Source: a virus
Taxonomy: Duplodnaviria > Caudoviricetes
Strand: one strand, 5' to 3'
Length of the DNA: 50,335 nt
IMG/VR virus record: IMGVR_UViG_3300042470_000725
Location: 1 to 50,335 of that record
Made by a program: the position numbers and the translations under genes. Shown here piece by piece: positions 3,757-45,176 of this stretch (position 1 is its first letter; each line of letters opens with the position of its first letter). Below the pieces are notes generated by a model. That model saw only the letters and a program-made list of their open reading frames with translations, was not told where the DNA came from and searched no databases.

Positions 3757-3965
3757 TCACGTTCGAGCTGCGCACCGTCACGGGGCGCGTCATTGAGACC
3801 GTCGACCGGGCGGACCGGGCTAAGGAGCTGGCGACATACCATGCGGACCGTATCGGGATAACCGTCACGGTCTATAGGGTCACGGTTCGGGAGACCGCCA
3901 TATGCTCCGCGCCGGCCCGTATGCCCTACGCGCCTGCAGAGCCGGGCAGGAGCGCCACGCCATGA
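3753..3965 (+). CDS. Hypothetical protein (paralogue family 1/3)
   Basis: ATG 3753 after ggagg; similar to the next two ORFs. Confidence 0.7.
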   Translation: MITFELRTVTGRVIETVDRADRAKELATYHADRIGITVTVYRVTVRETAICSAPARMPYAPAEPGRSATP

Positions 3966-4171
3966 GCGGGCCCCTTGTGCGATACGAGCTTTGCGATCGC
4001 CTTGGCCGCGTCGTTGTGAGCACCCCGACTTTTGGTCTCGCCGTCGACGTCGCCAAGGCGATCGCCAATAAGGACGGCCAAGCCGTGACCATACGCGCCG
4101 CCCGGCCCGTAGCGGTCATTGTTCCGGATAGCTTGCCGTACGGGCCGGCACGGCGGGCGGTGACGATATGA
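3962..4171 (+). CDS. Hypothetical protein (paralogue family 2/3)
   Basis: ATGA overlap, RBS aggag. Confidence 0.7.
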   Translation: MSGPLVRYELCDRLGRVVVSTPTFGLAVDVAKAIANKDGQAVTIRAARPVAVIVPDSLPYGPARRAVTI

Positions 4172-4383
4172 GCGAGCGCCGGGTATTTTACGAAGTGCAT
4201 GAAGTTGGTTTCGGCATTCTCACTACGATCTATGTCGCCAATAGCGAGGCGCGGGCTCTCGAATACGCTACGGAAATGGCGAACCGACGACGGGCGACCA
4301 TGAAAGTCGTTCGCGTCGTGGCGCTCGCCGACGTGACCTTTACGGTCGCCCCGGACTATGGGCCGAAGCCCGAACCTAGATAG
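4168..4383 (+). CDS. Hypothetical protein (paralogue family 3/3)
   Basis: ATGA overlap. Confidence 0.65.
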   Translation: MSERRVFYEVHEVGFGILTTIYVANSEARALEYATEMANRRRATMKVVRVVALADVTFTVAPDYGPKPEPR

Positions 4384-17682: not shown

Positions 17683-18027
17683 GTGCCTTATGAAATGCCC
17701 GCCGTTATCAACGCCGTTGGCGGGATCGACCTTCATGGTCGCGAGGGCATCCAGCTTGTTTTTAAGTTTGGCGAGTCCGACTTGACCGGACAGGATCTCT
17801 GGTTTGAGGTCAACGGCCTGTTTCGAAACGAGCTCGCCATAGGCGAAACGGTTTACGAAAAGATCATTACGATCTCGCAAGACGACGTACGCGCGATTTG
17901 GGAGGCCGGTACGCCCCGGGGCTCGAGTCGCCTGTTCACCGTGCGCCGATATGACGTCACGCCCCCACAAGTGCTTTGGGAGGGGCGAATCACTATTCGC
18001 GGCTATATCGAGGAGCCCCCGGCGTGA
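17683..18027 (+). CDS. Putative fibre/spike adaptor protein
   Basis: RBS ggaga; beta-rich, ends VLWEGRITIRG; coupled to the giant fibre gene. Confidence 0.55.
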   Translation: MPYEMPAVINAVGGIDLHGREGIQLVFKFGESDLTGQDLWFEVNGLFRNELAIGETVYEKIITISQDDVRAIWEAGTPRGSSRLFTVRRYDVTPPQVLWEGRITIRGYIEEPPA

Positions 18028-21000
18028 CCGAAACCGTGATCATTTCGCCCCTTGGCGCTCCGGGCATCATTCAAGGCAACCTTCCGCCGTCGGCGATGCG
18101 GTCCCATGCCGCGTTTCAAGCCGCGATTGACGATCTGGCGGCGGCGGGCAAAGAAGCCAAGATTCCCCGGGGCACGTGGCCCCTCGGGTATCTTGCCGCG
18201 CCTGAAGAGATCGACATATCGGGCCTTGGCGCGCTGTCCTTCGCGCCCGGCGCGGAAATTCTCAGCGACAACCCGTCGCGGGGCGTCTTCCTCGCCAACG
18301 GAAACACCGGCTTGCGTATCGAAGGGCTCCGGGCCCGGTACGAATTCGACGACGGAAACATTTTCCGGCCGGACATTGCGTGGCAGCAGGGCCTTAACGC
18401 GGCCGGAACAGTCGTCACGACGCCAAACGAAGAAATGCTGGCGTGGCTTACGGCGTGGAATGACGCATTCGGTACGTCGCTCAACGTCGACCCCGCGTCC
18501 ATCCTCAACTTCAAACAGCGCTGGGATCTGGTCTATACGGGGACGCCCTTCGAATCCTTGGCGCAAATCAGCCCGGCGGGCCGTCCGTCTGGTTTGATCC
18601 TCAACAACTGTTCCGAGCTCAAGATTTACGACCCGTTCGTGCAGTCGTGCGTCGCGCAAATCAACGACCAAGGCGGCGCGGCGACCGGCGACGCCCTGTA
18701 CGACTTCGCGACCTATATCGACACGCTCAAAATGGGGACCGATGAACGGTTTGCCTTGCTGGGAAAGAAGGGCGTCGCGGTCCGGGTCGATCGGCTGGTT
18801 TGCGACGTCACCGGCACACGGGACACCGGCGGCGCGCCGCATGGCATCTATTTTTCCGGCAATCCAGACACGACCCCGACGCCGGAAGCAAATACCGTCG
18901 CAAGTATTGGCGTCGTGCAGGTCACGACCTACAATCTCGCCCCCGTGGTCAAGGCGCGCGAGGCGTCAATTGATATCGGCGCGATCCTCGGCAAGACGAC
19001 GCAGTCGCTTCTTGGTCTGGTTCACTGTACCGGATCCATCGGGCCGGTCACTTCGCTAGACCAAACGCTGTCCGACGTCGACAACACCGGGTCGAAGTTT
19101 GTCGCCAACTTCACGCGTTGCTACGATATGCGCGTCGCCCGGATGAACGTCCAGCAACGGCCAAGCACCGGCCCGGCTCCGCAAAACGCTCTCCGGGTCG
19201 CCGACGTCAACGGCTGCGAACGCATGACGTTCGAAGGTTTCGACGTCGTCACGACGCGGCTTGACGACGCGGGCGGAATGGTCCGTTTCTCCCTTAGCAC
19301 CGATTGCGACGTTGGACCCGGCTCGCTAACCAATCTCGGGAACACCCCGGCATACCTTTACGAGCTGTCCGTTGGCGGCGAGATCGGCGGGAGCAACGGC
19401 GGGAGCAACGGCGGAAACAGCTTCGACGTCGTGCGCTGCTCCGCTAACGCCCGGATCGCGGACATTGGCGGCGCGAGCCGTAACACCCGCTTCAACGTCG
19501 ACGTCCGGCTTCTGGCGGACGGCTTTGAAGAGGGCGTAACCATCCGTGACGACTCGTTCGGGGCGTCCAATACCGTAAACATGGTTTTTGGCGAGCGTAT
19601 CGTCCCCTTCGGCGCAACGCCCCCGTCCTTCGAAACCCGGGCGTACGATAGCCTCCTGCTACGGTACACTCAGGACGAAGACAAAGACGACGATATCGTT
19701 CTCAACTATTCGAACGGGGACACGGTAACCCTTGTCGGACCGTCTGGCACCGTGACCGTTACGGCGGTCACGGCCCTGTCCGCCAACGGGCAGTTTTTGA
19801 TTGGCGCGGAACCGTCGGATAGCCAGAAGAACCTAGCCGCTCTGGTCAATCTGGATACGCCAGCGGCGGGCCGGTATCAGGCTGTCGCGGCTAACCCGGA
19901 CTATTCCGGCGTCGCATCCGGCCGCGAGTTTGTCGCGGTTAACCGCGTAACCGGAGCGGCGGGCAATGGTTACGCCATGTCGACGACGTCGCTCCGGGCC
20001 TTCTGGACAAGCGGCTTTACGGTAAACGGCGGCCTTGTCGACGGAAGCCTGTTCAACAGCGTCTTGGCGTTTGAGCCGGGGGCAACAGACGTAACTCTCG
20101 ACCTTCCGGATCCGTCCATCTTGCCAATAGGTTCCCGACTGGCGGTGAGCAAGTCGGACGACGCGGCGGGCTTTGTCACGACGGACACGCATCTAGGCGC
20201 AACCGTGTCGGTCCTCCGTAAAGAAGACGATCGAATCGACCTGTACAGCGACGGGACGGGCTGGCAGACCTTTACGGCTTCAACGCCTCACGTCGCCATG
20301 CGCGGCGACACGAGCGAGCGGCTGTCCATTACCGACTACGCGGACGACCCGACAAGCGGCGATTGGACGGACATTTTTGAAAGTGCGATGGCGGCGGGAT
20401 ACCGCAATATTTACGCCGACGATCGCGCCTTCCAATTCACAAACCTGATTCCCGCCGACGGAACGCGCCTTGAGTTTGGGCCTAACCACACTATCGGCAA
20501 CGCCGCGCCCCGCACCACGAGCAACATAATCGTAATAGACGGCGCGCAAAACGTGTCGATCGTTCGCCCGTTCTTTGACCTTCCGCCCATGCTCGAGGCC
20601 AACACGGGCAAAATGGCGAACGTCTATTGCAACGTATCCGCTGGGGGAATTGCCAACCCGGTAGTAATTAGCGAAGGCGGTTCCGGCTATACGCCGTCCA
20701 GCGGCACGTTCGACTACAGCCTTGGCGCTGGCGACTTGGGGACGGGCGGCGTCATCCGCTTTACGACCGTCGGGGGCGTGATCACGGCGGGGGAGGTCAT
20801 CACGGCGGGCACCGGATATGTGGCGTCATCGTCCAGCAGAATGCTTGTCGGCCGCTCTCAATACGCCAGCTATTCCATCTATGTCGGCGGCGATGACGGC
20901 GATTACAGCCAAAACATCTTGATCGAAGGCGCTCGTCAGCAGTACGGGCGGGGCTTCCTACGCGTTAACGGCGCGAACAACGTCACGGCGCGCGATTGCC

Positions 21001-23444
21001 TGCTAGAGGACGGCGGCTCTAGCTACGTCGGGATGACCTTTGAGAAGGTCACGAATTTCAAAGCGTTACAGAACCGCATTTATCGCGGTCACGGCTCCGG
21101 ACTAATTAACGGCTGCGCTATTCGGGTTTCGGGGGACGAGCCGTCAATTATTCAAACTGGTTTGATCGCCCATAACATTGTCGAAGATATTTTGATTGGG
21201 AACGGAATAGACAGCAATCTTTGTAACGTCCGCGACGTGTCTATCCTCGGTAATATCGTGACTATGCGCGACCCTTTGACCGTTTACGCGTACCAACTTA
21301 AGCAGGGCCTGACCTCGACTCTCACCGACCTTAACGAGCGGGGGGCTAAAAACTACATTTGGCGGGACAATCAAGCGATCCTGTATCACCCCGCCGCCGG
21401 CGGATGGGATCTGCAAAACAATATCGACGGCGAAGCTTTCGAGCCGTGGCTAGACCGAACCAACATTATTGACTTCCGGGGCTGTTCCGACACGACGTCT
21501 TCTTACGCCGTGCGCGGAACGGGCGTCACGGGTGGGTTTATTGGCCCGACGATTGTCGAGTGCCAGACCGGGATTCGTTTGACGGGCGGTACCCCCGGGT
21601 ACAACAGAAACGTAATCGTTGCGCCCCTTATCCGGCGTTGCCGTTACGGCGTTTGGATAGACGACGTCGGCCGCACGGTCGGGGTCCGCGACGCGGACAT
21701 TGTCGCCTCGGATATCGGCGTTTATGTCTCGGAAACCGGAACGTCGGACTTCCGCATTGAAGATACAAAAGTCCGCATCCGGGGGCGTCGCCTCAACAGC
21801 CTTACGATCAACACGGCGGGAACGGGCTACACTGACGGGACCTACGCGGTCTATGCCAACGGCGGCGGCGGGGGATTGATTTTCGAAGTTACCGCGACGG
21901 CGGGGGCGTTGACGTCTGCGCAGCTCACGGGTGGCGGCTTTGGGTACCTTGGCGGCGCGTCCGGGGCGTTCAAGCTCACGATTGACCCGCCGAACAACTG
22001 GACGGGCGGCACGGGCGGGATCGTCGAATGCACGGTTACGTCCGGCATCGTCACGGCCGTGGCGGTTAGCACGGCGGGCAGCGGGTACCTCGCGAGCGGG
22101 AACGGCGTATGGGCCCCGGAATTCGGGTACGGGTTTGAGGGGACGATTACCGTTTCCGGCGGCGTTTGCACGGCCTCCAGCGTGACCAATGGCGGTATCG
22201 GCTTCACGTCTAACCCGACGCTGGCGATTGGCAACCTGACGCTTCCGTCTGGCATCGGGGCCGGGTCCGGTACCATCGCGCTAACCGGCGCGGTTTCTTC
22301 GTCAACGGGCTATGCAACCCGTTTGATTGACGTTCAGTCGGCCAAGATTAGCGGAAACTGGTTCGAGAGCATAAACAGCAACGTCCGGCTAGAAAACGGA
22401 ACGGGCGCGCTGTCCTGCAAAAATGTGCAGGTTACGAACAATACGCTGGTTTCTTCTGCGGAACATATCAGCCTAGAAACCACAAATAACCAATACACCG
22501 CGCTTCACAATACGCGCATTGGCCCGGCGTCGTCAGATAGCACGACCACCGTTGCTTCCGGGGCGATCCGGGCAACGGGTAACGTAATCAAGCTTGCCCC
22601 GGAAGGGGGCGTTGCGGACAGCCTCGATACCATAAACGGCGCGCTAGGCTTCGGGCATACGGTTCTACTGGTGGGTTCCGCTACCGCGCCTATCACCGTG
22701 ACGGCGGCGGGCAACATTCGCCCCTTGGCGGGCGGCACGCGAACGCTTGCGGACCAATACGCCTCCCTTGAGCTGCGTTGGAACGGCTCGCTATGGTGCG
22801 AATATGGGTTTACCGACGTCGTCGCACCGGACGTGGGTTTGCTCACAGCGACTTGGGCGACCTTGCCTAGTGCGGCGACGTACCCCGGCCGCTGCGTCCT
22901 GATCACTGACGTCGGCGTTGACGGCGGGTCCGTGTGGGTAAGCAACGGGTCGATTTGGGCCCCGACCGGGCCCGTCGTTCTCGCGCGGTCTGCGGTCCAA
23001 TCGGCGGCCCATACCGGGACAGTCACGGAAACAACCGTCCAAAGCGTGACCATCCCGGCGGGTCTCATGGGGACCAACCGCTCGATTCGCGTTAGCCATA
23101 CGTGGAGCGTCGCGGCGCTGTCAGTCAACGCGAACGCCAAGACCTTCCGGGCGCGCCTGTCTACGGCGTCAAGCCCGCCCAACGGCACGGCGTTCAATTC
23201 GACGGCCGCCGCCAGCACCACCGCAACAACGGCACTTACGGGGCGGATTTCAAACCGCGACAGTGCGTCTGCGCAAGTGGTGGACCCGGGCGCTCTATCG
23301 GGTAACGGCGGCAACTCCACGTCAACCGTAGCCACCGGGACGCTCAACAGCGCCAACGTCTCATATGTTGTGTTTAGCGCCGAATTGGGGAACACGGGGG
23401 ATACGGTCTATCTCGAGCGTTACCTAGTGGAGCTTGTGCCGTGA
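18024..23444 (+). CDS. Large beta-helix (pectin-lyase-like) spike/fibre protein, about 1806 aa
   Basis: AAFQAAIDDL...IPRGTW and DWTDIFESAM domain starts; right-handed beta-helix repeats; GSGY/GTGY inserts. GTG 18024 after gaggag. Confidence 0.75.
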   Translation: MTETVIISPLGAPGIIQGNLPPSAMRSHAAFQAAIDDLAAAGKEAKIPRGTWPLGYLAAPEEIDISGLGALSFAPGAEILSDNPSRGVFLANGNTGLRIEGLRARYEFDDGNIFRPDIAWQQGLNAAGTVVTTPNEEMLAWLTAWNDAFGTSLNVDPASILNFKQRWDLVYTGTPFESLAQISPAGRPSGLILNNCSELKIYDPFVQSCVAQINDQGGAATGDALYDFATYIDTLKMGTDERFALLGKKGVAVRVDRLVCDVTGTRDTGGAPHGIYFSGNPDTTPTPEANTVASIGVVQVTTYNLAPVVKAREASIDIGAILGKTTQSLLGLVHCTGSIGPVTSLDQTLSDVDNTGSKFVANFTRCYDMRVARMNVQQRPSTGPAPQNALRVADVNGCERMTFEGFDVVTTRLDDAGGMVRFSLSTDCDVGPGSLTNLGNTPAYLYELSVGGEIGGSNGGSNGGNSFDVVRCSANARIADIGGASRNTRFNVDVRLLADGFEEGVTIRDDSFGASNTVNMVFGERIVPFGATPPSFETRAYDSLLLRYTQDEDKDDDIVLNYSNGDTVTLVGPSGTVTVTAVTALSANGQFLIGAEPSDSQKNLAALVNLDTPAAGRYQAVAANPDYSGVASGREFVAVNRVTGAAGNGYAMSTTSLRAFWTSGFTVNGGLVDGSLFNSVLAFEPGATDVTLDLPDPSILPIGSRLAVSKSDDAAGFVTTDTHLGATVSVLRKEDDRIDLYSDGTGWQTFTASTPHVAMRGDTSERLSITDYADDPTSGDWTDIFESAMAAGYRNIYADDRAFQFTNLIPADGTRLEFGPNHTIGNAAPRTTSNIIVIDGAQNVSIVRPFFDLPPMLEANTGKMANVYCNVSAGGIANPVVISEGGSGYTPSSGTFDYSLGAGDLGTGGVIRFTTVGGVITAGEVITAGTGYVASSSSRMLVGRSQYASYSIYVGGDDGDYSQNILIEGARQQYGRGFLRVNGANNVTARDCLLEDGGSSYVGMTFEKVTNFKALQNRIYRGHGSGLINGCAIRVSGDEPSIIQTGLIAHNIVEDILIGNGIDSNLCNVRDVSILGNIVTMRDPLTVYAYQLKQGLTSTLTDLNERGAKNYIWRDNQAILYHPAAGGWDLQNNIDGEAFEPWLDRTNIIDFRGCSDTTSSYAVRGTGVTGGFIGPTIVECQTGIRLTGGTPGYNRNVIVAPLIRRCRYGVWIDDVGRTVGVRDADIVASDIGVYVSETGTSDFRIEDTKVRIRGRRLNSLTINTAGTGYTDGTYAVYANGGGGGLIFEVTATAGALTSAQLTGGGFGYLGGASGAFKLTIDPPNNWTGGTGGIVECTVTSGIVTAVAVSTAGSGYLASGNGVWAPEFGYGFEGTITVSGGVCTASSVTNGGIGFTSNPTLAIGNLTLPSGIGAGSGTIALTGAVSSSTGYATRLIDVQSAKISGNWFESINSNVRLENGTGALSCKNVQVTNNTLVSSAEHISLETTNNQYTALHNTRIGPASSDSTTTVASGAIRATGNVIKLAPEGGVADSLDTINGALGFGHTVLLVGSATAPITVTAAGNIRPLAGGTRTLADQYASLELRWNGSLWCEYGFTDVVAPDVGLLTATWATLPSAATYPGRCVLITDVGVDGGSVWVSNGSIWAPTGPVVLARSAVQSAAHTGTVTETTVQSVTIPAGLMGTNRSIRVSHTWSVAALSVNANAKTFRARLSTASSPPNGTAFNSTAAASTTATTALTGRISNRDSASAQVVDPGALSGNGGNSTSTVATGTLNSANVSYVVFSAELGNTGDTVYLERYLVELVP

Positions 23445-30959: not shown

Positions 30960-31399
30960 TGGCCCGTCTGCGTACACTCACGGCGGCTAACGCCATTCTG
31001 TTGCTGTCCGTGACGGGGCTTTACGTCACGCCCCAACGGATCCAAGGCTTCTCGACTGACGACGCGTTCGACGTCGACACTGTCGAAGGCGCGGAAACCA
31101 TGATGGGCGTCGACGGCCTGCTGTCCGGGGGCTACGTCCCCAAGGAACGCAAGATGACCGTCACGCTGCAGGCGGACAGCCTCAGCAATGACTTTTTCGA
31201 CAATTGGGTTTCGGCTCAAGACGTCGTTCGCGAGCTCTATATCGCCAACGGGTCGATCGCGATTCCGTCGCTGTCCAAGAAGTACACGCTTACGCGGGGC
31301 ATCCTGTCCAGCTACAAGCCCCTCGCCGGCGTCAAAAAGACCCTGCAGGCCCGGCCCTTCGTCATCACTTGGCAAGCCGTCCAGCCGGCTCCGTTCTAA
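30959..31399 (+). CDS. Tail tube protein
   Basis: Follows the sheath; QGFSTDDAF, MGVDG.LSGG, TLQADS. Confidence 0.85.
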   Translation: MARLRTLTAANAILLLSVTGLYVTPQRIQGFSTDDAFDVDTVEGAETMMGVDGLLSGGYVPKERKMTVTLQADSLSNDFFDNWVSAQDVVRELYIANGSIAIPSLSKKYTLTRGILSSYKPLAGVKKTLQARPFVITWQAVQPAPF

Positions 31400-31854
31400 T
31401 GGCCCGGCGCACCGCAACCGTCACCGTGACCGCCCCGGGGCGCGATCAAGGCAAGGTGTTTGAGCTCACGGAAATGAGCGCAGCGCAGGCCGAAGATTGG
31501 GCGCTCCGGGCGTTTCTCGCGCTGGCGAGATCCGGCGTTGAGATTCCGGAAGACGTCGAAGCGTCCGGCTTTGCGGGCATCGCGTCGCTAGGTCTCCGGG
31601 CCTTCGGCGGCATGACCCACGCCGACGCCAAGCCGCTCATGGACGAAATGTTTTCGAGCTGCGTCCAGCACGTCCCGGACGCCCGTAACCCGCTCGTGCG
31701 GCGCGGGCTGGTCGATGACGACACGGAAGAAGTCGGGACGCGGCTTTGGCTTCGCGGCGAAGTGCTCAAGTTACACGTGGATTTTTCCGTGGTCGCAGCC
31801 CTCTTGAGCTCGAGGACGGCGGCGACCGGGTCGGACGCTTCGCCCCTTACGTAA
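31399..31854 (+). CDS. Tail assembly chaperone
   Basis: Between tube and tape measure; GRDQGKVFELTEMSA; slippery GGATTTT near the end. Confidence 0.8.
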   Translation: MARRTATVTVTAPGRDQGKVFELTEMSAAQAEDWALRAFLALARSGVEIPEDVEASGFAGIASLGLRAFGGMTHADAKPLMDEMFSSCVQHVPDARNPLVRRGLVDDDTEEVGTRLWLRGEVLKLHVDFSVVAALLSSRTAATGSDASPLT

Positions 31855-32009
31855 ACGTACCGGGGCTTATCGCCGTCGTTGTTTCGAGCCGCCTCGCGAC
31901 GCTGCACGAGCTGCAGACGATTTACGGGCTTCAAGATGCGTACGATCTGTTAGAGATTATTCGCGTCGACGGGTACAACGCGCGGGTCTCAAATGCCGAC
32001 GATAATTGA
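31779..32009 (+). CDS. -1 frameshift extension of the tail chaperone (gpGT analogue)
   Basis: G_GAT_TTT at 31779-31785 leads into an open -1 frame encoding LATLHELQTIYGLQDAYDLLEI. Confidence 0.7.
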   Translation, partial: GFFRGRSPLELEDGGDRVGRFAPYVNVPGLIAVVVSSRLATLHELQTIYGLQDAYDLLEIIRVDGYNARVSNADDN

Positions 32010-43425: not shown

Positions 43426-43607
43426 TTGTCCCCGGCCCTGCAGCTCTCCCCGCTATCCGCGCCGCAAAAAAGGCAGCACGCTAGGCCGGGATGCACTTCG
43501 TTTGTCTCGCATCTTTTCGGGAGCCCTAGAACGGCCGCCCAAAGAGCTTGACCCGCTACGTGCCTAGCTACGGAAGCCGGGTCCGTGTCTCGCTCAAAAC
43601 GGGTCAT
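43422..43607 (-). CDS. Small Cys-rich hypothetical protein
   Basis: ATGA coupling on both sides. Confidence 0.65.
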   Translation of the reverse strand: MTRFERDTDPASVARHVAGQALWAAVLGLPKRCETNEVHPGLACCLFCGADSGESCRAGDK

Positions 43608-44044
43608 TGCGCAGGCGTGACTGTTAGCCGGTCTAGGCGTTCTATTTCCGCCACGATCAACGCGCCCGCCTTTACGAGCTGCAGGCGGCGCGGCTCTCGC
43701 TTCTCAACCTTTGACCGATAGGCCCAAGACCATGAAGGAGGGTGCGTTCCCGTCAAAGCGAAGTCGGCGGCGGCGTTAGCAATTTCGCCGTTTCGGTGGC
43801 CGTCATCGTGTTCGGCGGTCCGGCCTTTAACGTCTATTTGCCGGCGTCGTTCTGCGGCGATATCCGGCAAAACCCCGGGCGCTTCCGCCTCGAGAAGCTG
43901 GATAGCGTAGTCCAGATACGTCCGGAATTCTTCCGCCTGTCGCCGGATCTTACAACCCGGCGCGCCGATGCGCGTCGCCGTAAAATGCTCTTGGGCGCGG
44001 ATAGCTCGCAGCCCGTTGACAACGTGTCTTCGTTCCATGGTCAC
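43604..44044 (-). CDS. Conserved phage hypothetical protein
   Basis: AERRRQI...EHDDGH..GEIA...LVKAGALIVAEIERLDR; RBS aggagg. Confidence 0.8.
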   Translation of the reverse strand: MTMERRHVVNGLRAIRAQEHFTATRIGAPGCKIRRQAEEFRTYLDYAIQLLEAEAPGVLPDIAAERRRQIDVKGRTAEHDDGHRNGEIANAAADFALTGTHPPSWSWAYRSKVEKREPRRLQLVKAGALIVAEIERLDRLTVTPAQ

Positions 44045-44049
44045 GCCTC

Positions 44050-44160
44050 CTAGAATGGGATTTCATCATGGCACGCTTTGCACTCCCAAAGACCCCGGCC
44101 GACGTAGCGGACAGCCGGGGCCTTACAGAAGTCACAGAGCGGGCCGCTTAGGCCGGGGGG
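44050..44160 (-). other. Start-less -1 frame extension of SSB (zinc ribbon + DEIPF)
   Basis: Encodes PPGLSGPLCDFCKAPAVRYVGRGLWECKACHDEIPF*; reached from C_CCC_CCG at the end of the SSB gene. Confidence 0.55.
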
Positions 44161-45176
44161 CCTTGCATCATCCCGTGAGCGACAAGGGTCGCGTCGGTCC
44201 AGCCCGCCGCAAGCATGGCCTCATAAGACGCACCGCCAGCGGCCGGGAGCATGACGCGGACGGGAGCCGCCGGGGGCGTCGGCGCGGGCGCTGGCGGGGC
44301 CGGAGCGGGCCCGGCGCGGTACCCGTCGTATGCCGGGGCGGCGGGCGCTGCAGGGGGCACCGGCGCGGCCATGGGCGGGACGGGGGCCGGAGCCGGGGCG
44401 GGCGCTGCGGCCGGGGGCGGGGCCATCATGCCCGCCGCGATCAAGGCGGCGTCGGTCCAGCCGGCCGCGATCATGGCTTCGTACGTCACGCCGCCAGCCG
44501 CCGGGAGCATGACCGGGCCGACGCCGGGCATGGCTCCCGTCGCAACGGGCGTGACCGACGCGCCCGGGGGCAACGCCACGGGTCCGCCCGCCGTCCCAAA
44601 AGCATCTTCAGCCGACGGGCCGACGATGATCTCCGGGCCGATACCGTCGATTGCGAATTGACTCCAATTCATATGCAATCCGGGCTTTTGAGCGTTGTCG
44701 TTGCTCTTGATCGTCCCGGCGACACGGCCGTAATACCCGCGCTTGATCTCTTCGGGCCGCGCTTCCCGCCACGCGCCGCCTTCGCTCTTGACGACCTTGG
44801 GCTGGAATCCGTTGGTAAAGCGGACAACCCAATGACCGGCAAACCCGGGCAGGCGATTGAACGGCCGGCCGCGATCGTCGAAGCCGTCGCCGTCAACGAC
44901 CTTGTCGCTGAAAGTCGGAAGAACGCAGGGGCCGCCCGGGGTCGGATACAGGTGCGGCCACGAGAGCCGGGCTTCCGCGTCGATCAACGCTTTGAATGCC
45001 GGCCAAGCCGGGTCGGACTTGGCGAAGGCGAGCGCGACAAACCATTCCGTGCGCGCCTGTCCGGCGTTGGGGCCCGTCTTGATCGTCAGGGGCGCGCCCT
45101 GCATGTCCGTCGTATTCGGCTTAAAGGCGTCGCCCTGCACGAGCCGCCCGACGGGGCTGGTAAAATTGGTAGGCAT
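44148..45176 (-). CDS. Phage single-stranded DNA-binding protein (DUF2815 / T7 gp2.5-like OB fold)
   Basis: SPVGRLV, KVVDGDG, PGFAGHW, IKRGYYGRV; position between Cas4-like nuclease and polymerase; Pro/Ala tail with two repeats. Confidence 0.7.
   Translation of the reverse strand: MPTNFTSPVGRLVQGDAFKPNTTDMQGAPLTIKTGPNAGQARTEWFVALAFAKSDPAWPAFKALIDAEARLSWPHLYPTPGGPCVLPTFSDKVVDGDGFDDRGRPFNRLPGFAGHWVVRFTNGFQPKVVKSEGGAWREARPEEIKRGYYGRVAGTIKSNDNAQKPGLHMNWSQFAIDGIGPEIIVGPSAEDAFGTAGGPVALPPGASVTPVATGAMPGVGPVMLPAAGGVTYEAMIAAGWTDAALIAAGMMAPPPAAAPAPAPAPVPPMAAPVPPAAPAAPAYDGYRAGPAPAPPAPAPTPPAAPVRVMLPAAGGASYEAMLAAGWTDATLVAHGMMQGPPA

Follow-up and report, generated by a model that had tools for sequence, protein, structure and literature searches.

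Why does the gene for the single-stranded DNA-binding (SSB) protein of a phage end without the acidic tail that characterizes its family, while an acidic tip lies behind it in another reading frame? The gene in question is on the minus strand of IMG/VR record IMGVR_UViG_3300042470_000725, a complete virus record of 50,335 bp with direct terminal repeats and a G+C content of 64.1%. We analyzed the whole record and will call it the window. SSBs of the T7 gp2.5 or Enc34 type characteristically have an acidic C-terminal tail, which in T7 contacts the polymerase and the helicase (PMC5686142). The SSB of the window has no acidic C-terminal tail in its own frame (the 0 frame), where the product ends ...HGMMQGPPA. 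At this locus, an acidic, aromatic-ended tip is found in the -1 frame only. In other words, a tail that all bacterial and phage SSBs are supposed to have seems to be missing here, and is present in a different frame, which keeps it from ever appearing in gene calls and protein databases. We propose that programmed -1 frameshifting makes a second isoform of the SSB that bears the tip. From the comparisons of sequences described below, we put the probability of this at roughly three in four.

The 3' end of the SSB gene reads ...ATG ATG CAA GGC CCC CCG GCC TAA and includes a run of six C at 44160-44155 (G6 on the plus strand). The elements at and behind this run are:

44160-44154, minus strand: heptamer C_CCC_CCG, slippery and phased such that two tRNA-Pro could slip by -1 in tandem
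44150-44148, minus strand: TAA stop of the 0 frame, one codon past the heptamer
44053..44160, minus strand: -1-frame (trans-frame) module of 36 codons, encoding PP, a linker, CDFC, 18 residues, CKAC, and HDEIPF
44125..44136, minus strand: putative first zinc knuckle, CxxC (TGT GAC TTC TGT)
44071..44082, minus strand: putative second zinc knuckle, CxxC (TGC AAA GCG TGC), a near-invariant column in an alignment of 25 modules
44053..44070, minus strand: C-terminal tip H-D-E-I-P-F, like the tip of bacterial SSBs
44052-44050, minus strand: TAG stop of the -1 frame, overlapping the AGGAGG (44051-44046) of the next gene
44079..44136, minus strand: predicted RNA hairpin, with a 13-bp G+C core stem (44124-44112 / 44101-44089) that starts 30 nt after the heptamer

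Read from the heptamer, the -1 frame encodes PPGLSGPLCDFCKAPAVRYVGRGLWECKACHDEIPF, followed by TAG. The stop that opens this frame lies 20 codons upstream of PP. The frame contains no ATG, GTG, or TTG, and its one CTG is there because the conserved Gly-Trp of the 0 frame forces it. The module fills the gap between the SSB stop and the next gene, and its four cysteines (C9, C12, C27, and C30) form two CxxC pairs with the spacing CxxC-x18-CxxC. In the 30 open reading frames (ORFs) of the window that have PHROG support (35,670 nt), the codon pair CCC CCG is present 10 times, and the heptamer C_CCC_CCG is present in phase just once, at this site. Similarly, [ILVM]P[FYW]-stop is found exactly once in the six frames of the 50,335-nt window, and this one instance is the tip. 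Within this genome, the tip is far from a chance event. When we folded 44040-44165, we obtained an extended helix that begins 8 nt past the heptamer (-57.8 kcal/mol; z-score -2.9); across our folds of the hairpin, the z-score was -2.8 to -2.9.

Most of this anatomy was described in a first-pass annotation of the window, which was made from the sequence alone. On checking against the minus strand, all that it says about the sequence is correct, including the coordinates of the heptamer and the G6 run and the reading of the SSB end and the -1 frame. It was also right that CTG is the only potential start in the -1 segment, that the segment fills the intergenic gap and its TAG overlaps AGGAGG, that a GC hairpin lies about 30 nt downstream, and that the -1 frame ends like a host SSB (HDEIPF-stop, which it called a DEIPF tail).

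We rejected two other ways of attaching the module to a neighboring ORF. If ribosomes hopped over the stop codon, from GCC to a downstream GCC, they would go on reading the 0 frame, and it is a different frame that is conserved. And the module is not an N-terminal extension of the next gene, which is in another frame, with a stop in between.

The first-pass annotation had raised the concern that the six-base run might be a homopolymer error, with a true length of seven. If so, the true gene would be an in-frame fusion of the SSB to a zinc ribbon. Indels in homopolymers are a common type of assembly or sequencing error, and the window was assembled from a metagenome. We aligned contigs from four Logan runs, none of which is the likely source of the window. 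The run at 44155-44160 was spanned without an indel by five contigs from three of these runs: X4 (records 4 and 5), X5 (records 9 and 11), and X7 (record 22). All of them have six bases. Two of the five contigs are from a variant strain with 14-17 other differences, so the length of six is kept in a diverged strain as well. The six-base length of the run is real and is not an assembly error.

The variant strain is also informative about how the extension evolves. We read its changes codon by codon in the -1 frame. Eight of the 12 substitutions in the extension are synonymous changes at third positions (44065, 44068, 44083, 44092, 44098, 44113, 44125, and 44134). Two of these, at 44125 and 44134, change TGT to TGC in both Cys codons of the first CxxC. 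The other four substitutions (44090, 44099, 44114, and 44133) are non-synonymous. Small indels at 44101-44110 compensate one another, and the variant strain retains all four cysteines and HDEIPF. Within the hairpin, 44114 and 44099 change together (C-G to G-C), and three further changes turn G-U into G-C or keep the pairing; one or two outer pairs are broken.

More distant relatives have the same arrangement. L001, an IMG/VR contig whose SSB is 86% identical to that of the window, reads ...AGC CCC CCG GCC TAA, and its -1 frame encodes PPGLSRTCVFCGAPGAYPLNARRGTWQCAACFDEIPF, then a stop, with no start codon. Across 34 aligned codons, L001 and the window have 11 identical codons, 11 synonymous differences, and 12 that change the residue, and the differences are concentrated at third positions (7, 10, and 18 at the first, second, and third codon positions). 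L038, whose SSB is just 45% identical, contains the identical block ATGATGAGCCCCCCGGCCTAA, and its -1 module has four cysteines and ends CDAIPF. The block ATGATG..GCCCCCCGGCCTAA is invariant in the window, L001, and L038. When we scanned IMG/VR for the junction pattern, it matched these two contigs only. Both relatives have strong hairpins of their own (z-scores of -3.9 for L001 and -2.3 for L038). RNAalifold on the window and L001 found a short shared core with one compensatory pair; indels spoil this alignment. Given the excess of third-position changes in two comparisons (the variant strain and L001), the aligned sequences indicate that the way in which the extension evolves is that of coding sequence read in the -1 frame.

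To place the 0-frame stop in the context of its family, we need to describe the protein that it terminates. The SSB gene, the parts of its product, and the gene that follows are:

45176-44148, minus strand: SSB gene in the 0 frame, predicted to encode a 342-aa ssDNA-binding protein of the T7 gp2.5 / Enc34 type
44622..45176, minus strand: DNA-binding domain with an OB (oligonucleotide/oligosaccharide-binding) fold, residues ~1-185, with model confidence (pLDDT) above 90 over residues 1-180; the part that aligned to solved T7-type SSBs
44421..44513, minus strand: first copy of a two-helix mini-domain (...YEAMIAAGWTD...), residues 222-252, pLDDT 91-96, with helices at 232-237 and 242-247
44163..44255, minus strand: second copy of the mini-domain, residues 308-338, the usual C-terminal end for the SSB family
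43604..44051, minus strand: next gene with its ribosome-binding site AGGAGG (44051-44046); ATG at 44038, with a GTG at 44044 also in frame; matches phrog_9763 and others, of unknown function

The SSB is similar to phrog_7011 (Gp2.5-like SSB and annealing protein; E = 7.7e-56). Pfam's PF10991 (Enc34_ssDNA-bd, formerly DUF2815) scores only 13 bits on it, against a cut-off of 26; with the same model, 25 of 37 aligned relatives reach E <= 1 (8.1e-9 at best). A profile of the SSB family had no match among PDB sequences. The AlphaFold model of the SSB has an overall pLDDT of 85.6, and with Foldseek it matched a DUF2815 protein (4klk, 9.5e-10), the Enc34 SSB (5odl, 4e-9), and T7 gp2.5 (1je5, 6e-7). 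As modeled, the SSB of the window has a T7-type OB fold. The OB domain is followed by Pro/Ala linkers and the two copies of the mini-domain. The mini-domain is about 30 residues long and has no match in Pfam; most relatives have a single copy, at the very C-terminus.

A search of 5.8 billion proteins found 403 relatives of the SSB at E <= 0.001, and we read the last 60 residues of the best 120. The motif of the mini-domain is conserved at the C-termini of these 120, and nearly all of them end one to a few residues after it. Therefore, the TAA in the window is the normal stop for the family. None of the best 120 of the 403 called homologs ends with CxxC...IPF. The two closest, P0001 (96% identity) and P0002 (86% identity), end in ...PPA, as does the SSB of the window. 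Two called homologs have odd ends: P0063 ends in ...HDHVPF and P0034 ends in ...SRCWSCG, which may be cut.

These ends add to the case against a homopolymer error. Nearly all of the best 120 homologs end at the position of the 0-frame stop, the called proteins P0001 and P0002 stop at the same ...PPA, and L001 and L038 share both the junction and the stop. Also, as described below, at 19 loci the module overlaps a 0 frame that is open and runs on into a conserved domain. We consider an error extremely unlikely.

How widespread are such modules? We collected 119 loci with this type of SSB; after removing duplicates and loci where the SSB stop was off the locus, 92 unique loci remained, including the window. 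(Scans of metagenome contigs contributed 13 loci with the SSB, mostly distant ones, and genome contigs contributed five.) Near the 3' end of the SSB, we counted the stop-to-stop segments of at least 12 codons that end in [ILVM]P[FYW]-stop:

-1 frame: 29 of 431 segments
+1 frame: 0 of 526 segments
0 frame: 1 of 301 segments (L043)

We dropped one of the -1-frame segments (L047, ...CTELPW, 437 nt downstream) as unrelated. This left 28 tip segments from 25 of the 92 loci, with tips of the form D-x-[IV]-P-[FY]-stop. All but one of these segments (L020) are Cys-rich. The cysteines are arranged as two CxxC pairs, as C-x6-C-x-[YF]-P-x-C...C, or as CxCGSG...CxxC. The modules end C-D-[D/A/E/S/C]-[I/V/L]-P-[F/Y], and in the alignment of 25 modules the tips are near-invariant and the Cys columns are conserved. 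Variants of the tip in relatives include DDIPF, DAIPF, DDVPF, DDIPY, and DDDIPF.

Only 6 of the 28 segments lie past the SSB stop, as in the window. The other 22 are inside the Pro/Ala linker, where they overlap the 0 frame just before the last mini-domain. In 300 shuffles of synonymous codons within each gene, internal tips arose in 0.17 +/- 0.42 loci (at most 2), compared to the 19 of 90 loci that actually have them. The codon usage of the overlapped 0 frame at the 22 distinct internal tips is similarly skewed:

Overlapped Pro codon: CCT in 21 of 21 cases, compared to 720 of 4077 (18%) family-wide
Overlapped Ser codon: TCT in 16 of 16 cases, compared to 156 of 1435 (11%) family-wide
Overlapped Ser codon: TCC in 14 of 14 cases, compared to 242 of 1435 (17%) family-wide

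We also searched in the reverse direction: Cys-Asp-x-Ile-Pro-Phe-stop, written as DNA from the usual codons, was used as a pattern to scan IMG/VR. This found 13 viral contigs. In eleven of the matches, the SSB profile matches the frame that lies one base to the right of that of the tip, which places the tip in the -1 frame of an ORF for a gp2.5-like SSB; six of these are on contigs that were not previously sampled. Nine of the 11 SSB modules have no start codon. Another match, L140, is the ordinary in-frame ...DDIPF end of a small ORF.

Searches with the module itself were less productive. When we searched 50,697 phage records by tblastn with the 36-aa module, nothing scored better than E = 0.9; the module is too short and too variable for such a search. 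A profile of the module, which with 33 positions is underpowered, gave no hit at E <= 10 among 368 candidates from called proteins of 13-81 aa. Against 1.84 billion representatives, the same underpowered profile had one match at E <= 0.001, a repetitive CxxC protein that is unrelated to the tip. Neither profile search is informative about free-standing modules or in-frame ones.

A few loci depart from the common pattern. In L043, an IMG/VR contig with 45% G+C from a clade that lacks the module, the SSB itself ends in frame with ...AAIPDDIPF. To judge from its sequence, the SSB-type tip also serves where there is neither recoding nor a zinc module. In L020, which is distant and low in G+C, the -1 segment has 50 codons and no cysteines; it lies directly past the 0-frame stop and ends ...GDEDDLPF-stop, so its tip is of the LPF type. 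Nine other loci (L054, L057, L068, L080, L095, and L051; L070, L082, and L102) have Cys-rich -1 modules in the linker, behind C_CCT_TTG, that lack the IPF tip. These modules end in ...CCCRARFQDD-stop or are plain CxxC...CxxC ribbons.

L013 has two -1 tips. The internal one (3780-3878, ...CDAIPF-stop) is behind C_CCT_TTG, and the second (4074-4187, ...DDDIPF-stop) is past the SSB stop. The downstream module has no heptamer and may be a relic. The module of the window could likewise be a relic: a tail gene, formerly in frame or separate, that is decaying unexpressed in the gap. The first-pass annotation had listed a decayed mini-gene among its alternatives. This is contradicted by the conservation of the four cysteines and the tip. 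The frame is intact, changes are in excess at third positions in two comparisons, and the heptamer, stop, and hairpin are conserved out to 45% identity of the SSB. It is very unlikely that the module is a non-functional relic.

Most of the modules follow slippery sites. An in-phase heptamer of the form X_XXY_YYZ lies 24-56 codons (mostly 30-41) before the module's stop in 24 of the 28 tip segments; the other two phases account for 8 and 2. The most common heptamers are C_CCC_CCG (8), C_CCT_TTG (7), G_GGA_AAC (5), G_GGT_TTT (4), and T_TTT_TTG (2), along with a few others. No ATG, GTG, or TTG is present anywhere in 17 of the 28 segments. With a looser definition (an in-phase heptamer and a -1 extension of 20-60 codons with at least 4 cysteines), 39 of the 92 loci have a candidate, and 21 of these have the tip. 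Internal cases under this definition number 36, compared to 7.4 +/- 2.5 (at most 15) in 200 shuffles. According to PMC4066793, C_CC.C_CC.G and C_CC.U_UU.G are among 18 heptamers that are under-represented in E. coli genes and shift at above 0.10% without stimulators, and C_CCC_CCC is named among the most efficient heptamers (Sharma et al. 2014). Taking these sequences together, the SSB gene of the window has at its end an in-phase slippery heptamer followed by a -1 ORF that is conserved and lacks a start codon.

Several observations weigh against programmed frameshifting as the explanation. Across whole SSB ORFs, in-phase heptamers are also the most common (218:109:64), and therefore the excess of in-phase heptamers at the modules (33:10:2) is modest evidence; judging from the sequences, the regular distance and the types of heptamers carry more weight than the phase. 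Four of the 28 modules (L013 downstream, L020, L077, and L079) have no strict heptamer. By the rules that are quoted in PMC4066793, the heptamers that we found do not rank as the most efficient in E. coli. The structure that follows the heptamer is weak on average (mean z-score of -0.6 over 22 folded modules, including those of the window, L001, and L038); it is strong only in these three, and each of the internal modules was weak. Synonymous differences are not depleted within internal modules: at codons for identical residues, the rate was 105/252 = 0.42 within these modules and 1504/3458 = 0.43 elsewhere (18 pairs; P = 0.60, Fisher's exact test). Therefore, the visible constraint is limited to the positions of the cysteines and the tip, which, on these alignments, fits the variable sequence between them. 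Finally, contigs are blind to minority variants in length, and slippage at the level of DNA or RNA is possible.

Cultured phages provide another point of this kind. We checked eight named cultured relatives, and six of them (vsMR, Silvanus, MR14, SppYZU01, Psp6, and Scuro) lack the tip. The other two are the Rhizobium phages P106B (KF977490, L125:1817-1930) and RHph_X2_24 (MW960031, L122 ~1846-1960). Both have C..C...C..C-E-[I/M]-DDDIPF-stop in an unannotated gap behind the SSB gene. But these modules are in the +1 frame, not the -1 frame, so one mechanism does not fit all. In P106B, where the first Cys has no start codon ahead of it, the junction reads ...ATG CCC CCG CGA TAA TAG. That of RHph_X2_24 reads ...CCG GGG CGA TAA; its +1 frame opens only four codons ahead of the SSB stop, and there is a GTG two codons ahead of the first Cys. 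Going by these junctions, recoding does not seem to be uniform within the family.

The fold of the module was predicted from the 36 residues of the window's module with the alignment of 25 modules; the model has a pLDDT of 80.3, with a beta hairpin at residues 18-26 and a short helix at 28-31. Foldseek found no match to the model at E <= 0.001. The best row from PDB was at E = 1.3, and the top rows, at that value or worse, were small zinc domains (ZZ, PHD, LIM, and the zinc-binding domain of ClpX). The model is compatible with a zinc knuckle fold without establishing one. Where the first-pass annotation had called the module a zinc ribbon, the four cysteines in two CxxC pairs are there, and the fold is less certain.

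We weighed the frameshift against two other ways in which the module might be expressed. First, the 34-36 codons could be a separate mini-gene that yields a free zinc protein with the tip, from a non-canonical start or by re-initiation, and acts as a decoy or an adaptor. A few modules do have a start near the first Cys (TTG in L077 and GTG in RHph_X2_24). Also, the module seems portable: some relatives have it ahead of the C-terminal mini-domain and others have it behind. But a separate ATG-started gene, which the first-pass annotation had considered for homologs, is not seen in modules of the window type, and starts are present in just a minority of modules: 17 of 28 lack any. In the window, neither ATG, GTG, nor TTG lies between the stop that opens the -1 frame and the first Cys, and the codons past the SSB stop (CTA AGC GGC CCG CTC) include no near-cognate start. 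Internal modules are deep within the SSB ORF with no evident ribosome-binding site, and a mini-gene would leave the conserved in-phase heptamer without a role. We view a mini-gene as unlikely.

Second, the same fusion isoform could arise if RNA polymerase or the phage's DNA polymerase slipped on the C6/G6 run and added a base. The junction in the window does contain a six-base homopolymer. In the Rhizobium phages, the junction has C5 or G4, and the loss of one base would reach their +1 frame. The blindness of contigs to minority length variants also favors this explanation. However, most relatives' modules are behind C_CCT_TTG, G_GGA_AAC, or G_GGT_TTT, which are ribosomal slippery heptamers and not long homopolymers. 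Productive transcriptional slippage in bacteria usually requires runs of about nine A or T. The run is also exactly six in the five contigs from three runs and in the two diverged relatives. Polymerase slippage is quite unlikely, in our view.

Programmed -1 frameshifting, which the first-pass annotation had proposed as the source of a longer isoform, is the best-supported reading of the sequences: the arrangement is conserved in relatives at 86% and 45% identity, changes are concentrated at third positions, and tips of this kind are found at 25 of 92 loci. We infer that it is ribosomes that shift, rather than RNA polymerase, that the module binds zinc, and that the tip docks on host or phage partners.

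We propose that most ribosomes would stop at the TAA and yield the 342-residue SSB, without an acidic tail. A fraction would slip by -1 on C_CCC_CCG, where the two tRNA-Pro would re-pair with CCC CCC; the downstream G+C hairpin probably aids the slip. Ribosomes that slip would bypass the stop and add about 34 residues, comprising a putative pair of zinc knuckles with four cysteines and a free C-terminal H-D-E-I-P-F. With modules of the window type, the longer isoform would retain both mini-domains and gain the tip. With internal modules, the shift would swap the last mini-domain for the tip. Either way, how efficiently ribosomes shift would decide how much of the SSB on ssDNA bears the tip and how much is tip-less. 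The tip is like the C-terminal tip of bacterial SSB (SSB-Ct), through which proteins of replication and repair are recruited, and T7 gp2.5 needs its tail, which is acidic and ends in Phe, for contact with its polymerase and helicase (PMC5686142). By analogy, the tip-bearing isoform is likely the form that recruits the host's SSB partners or the phage replisome.

To see how the modules are distributed within the family, we built a tree of 89 OB domains (a quick search, with SH-aLRT, the Shimodaira-Hasegawa-like approximate likelihood ratio test, as the only measure of support). The tree splits into two groups with a support of 97:

First group, 35 rows: 33 without a module and 2 with Cys-only modules
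Second group, 54 rows: 24 with tips (internal in 19, downstream in 4, and both in 1), 15 with Cys-only modules, and 15 without a module

In this tree, the window and L001 form a pair, and the window sits with L038 and with a group that has internal tips (L013, L061, L084, and L090). From this tree, the module looks old within the 54-row clade, and its position looks to have changed. Among the sampled rows of this clade, 39 of 54 have a Cys-rich -1 module and 24 of 54 have a tip like SSB-Ct. A broader proposal is that a large clade of T7-type SSBs keeps its docking tail in an alternative frame, that the efficiency of frameshifting acts as a translational dial on the share of ssDNA-coating SSB able to recruit replication and repair enzymes of the host (or phage) by a zinc-held copy of the bacterial tip, that the module has shifted from one side of the C-terminal mini-domain to the other and, in Rhizobium phages, into the +1 frame, and that this is an undescribed and widespread class of recoding. 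We are evenly divided about this broader proposal. The relatives that were binned into metagenome-assembled genomes are mostly in Alphaproteobacteria, which fits with a tip of the IPF type.

A close known case among replication proteins is dnaX of E. coli, in which a programmed -1 frameshift at A_AAA_AAG, with an upstream Shine-Dalgarno (SD) sequence and a downstream hairpin, ends the protein early and gives gamma as well as tau. In both systems, an in-phase heptamer and a stem-loop would give two isoforms of a replication protein that differ in a C-terminal part that binds partners. In dnaX, the shift removes domains; here, it would bypass the stop or replace the last mini-domain, and append the zinc module with the tip. 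The two systems also differ in gene family and in heptamers, and no upstream stimulator like the SD sequence is evident.

The dnaX heptamer itself turned up at a side locus from the reverse search, on IMG/VR record G001 (9,341 bp; L139, tip at 451-471; L143:946-2061). This is a phrog_862 gene of unknown function, directly after the gene for a family-A DNA polymerase. A_AAA_AAG is followed, in the -1 frame and with no start codon, by 29 codons that encode CxxC...CxxC-DEIPF-stop. The SSB profile has no match on this record.

The modules also resemble the extension of the phage tail assembly chaperones G/GT. There, too, a -1 shift at a fixed place is conserved in diverged phages, with heptamers that vary by lineage and an extension that lacks a start. 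But G/GT functions in structural assembly, and the SSB functions in replication.

As to the protein, the OB fold is the same as in T7 gp2.5 and Enc34 ORF6 (Foldseek E = 4e-9 to 6e-7). Those proteins have their tail in frame and have no zinc module, unlike the SSB of the window, whose 0-frame product is tail-less and whose tip is in the -1 frame. The SSB-Ct of E. coli is ...D-D-D-I-P-F. As in SSB-Ct, the last five residues of the module are D-E-I-P-F with a free carboxyl end. Unlike in bacterial SSB, the tip would be on an unrelated SSB of the T7 type, and it follows a module with four cysteines instead of a long, disordered acidic linker.

We found no description of frameshifting involving a phage SSB, gp2.5, DUF2815, or the SSB tip in the literature that we could search, which does not cover subscription journals. 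The main text of the PRFect paper does not mention "SSB" or "single-strand", and the first 300,000 characters of a 2016 review of recoding mention neither SSB nor gp2.5. Going by titles and the openings of abstracts, the literature on P106B does not suggest any treatment of its module. The proposed clade-wide recoding of phage SSB genes is apparently undescribed. In phages, the programmed frameshifts known so far are mainly those of tail chaperones, capsid genes, and transposases; a replication protein would join these, across a clade. If the tip works like SSB-Ct, then these phages could tap the host's SSB interaction network in a dosed way, which would bear on phage replication, on recombination, and on the defense systems that sense SSB. 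For annotation, the sequences suggest that what looks like intergenic sequence behind these SSB genes codes for protein, including that of P106B and RHph_X2_24.

The rest of the window is that of a phage whose structural genes (sheath, baseplate, tape measure, portal, and terminase) are of the myovirus type. Besides the gp2.5-like SSB, its replication genes encode a primase, a helicase, a family-A DNA polymerase, and an exonuclease (DUF2800/PD-(D/E)XK). A tRNA scan of the window found none, and Rfam has no match in 43800-44400. On the plus strand, an ORF of 1,822 aa (17976-23444) lies between the head-morphogenesis and protease genes and has no PHROG match at E <= 1e-5. Also on the plus strand, 31399-32009 is arranged like the genes for a tail assembly chaperone: an ORF that ends at 31854 is overlapped by a -1 ORF (31746-32009), just before the tape measure gene. 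We saw no strict X_XXY_YYZ heptamer in the overlap (31746-31854). Sequences that are nearly identical to the window are present in metagenome runs from lake water and fresh water; no RNA run is among the runs listed with this stretch.

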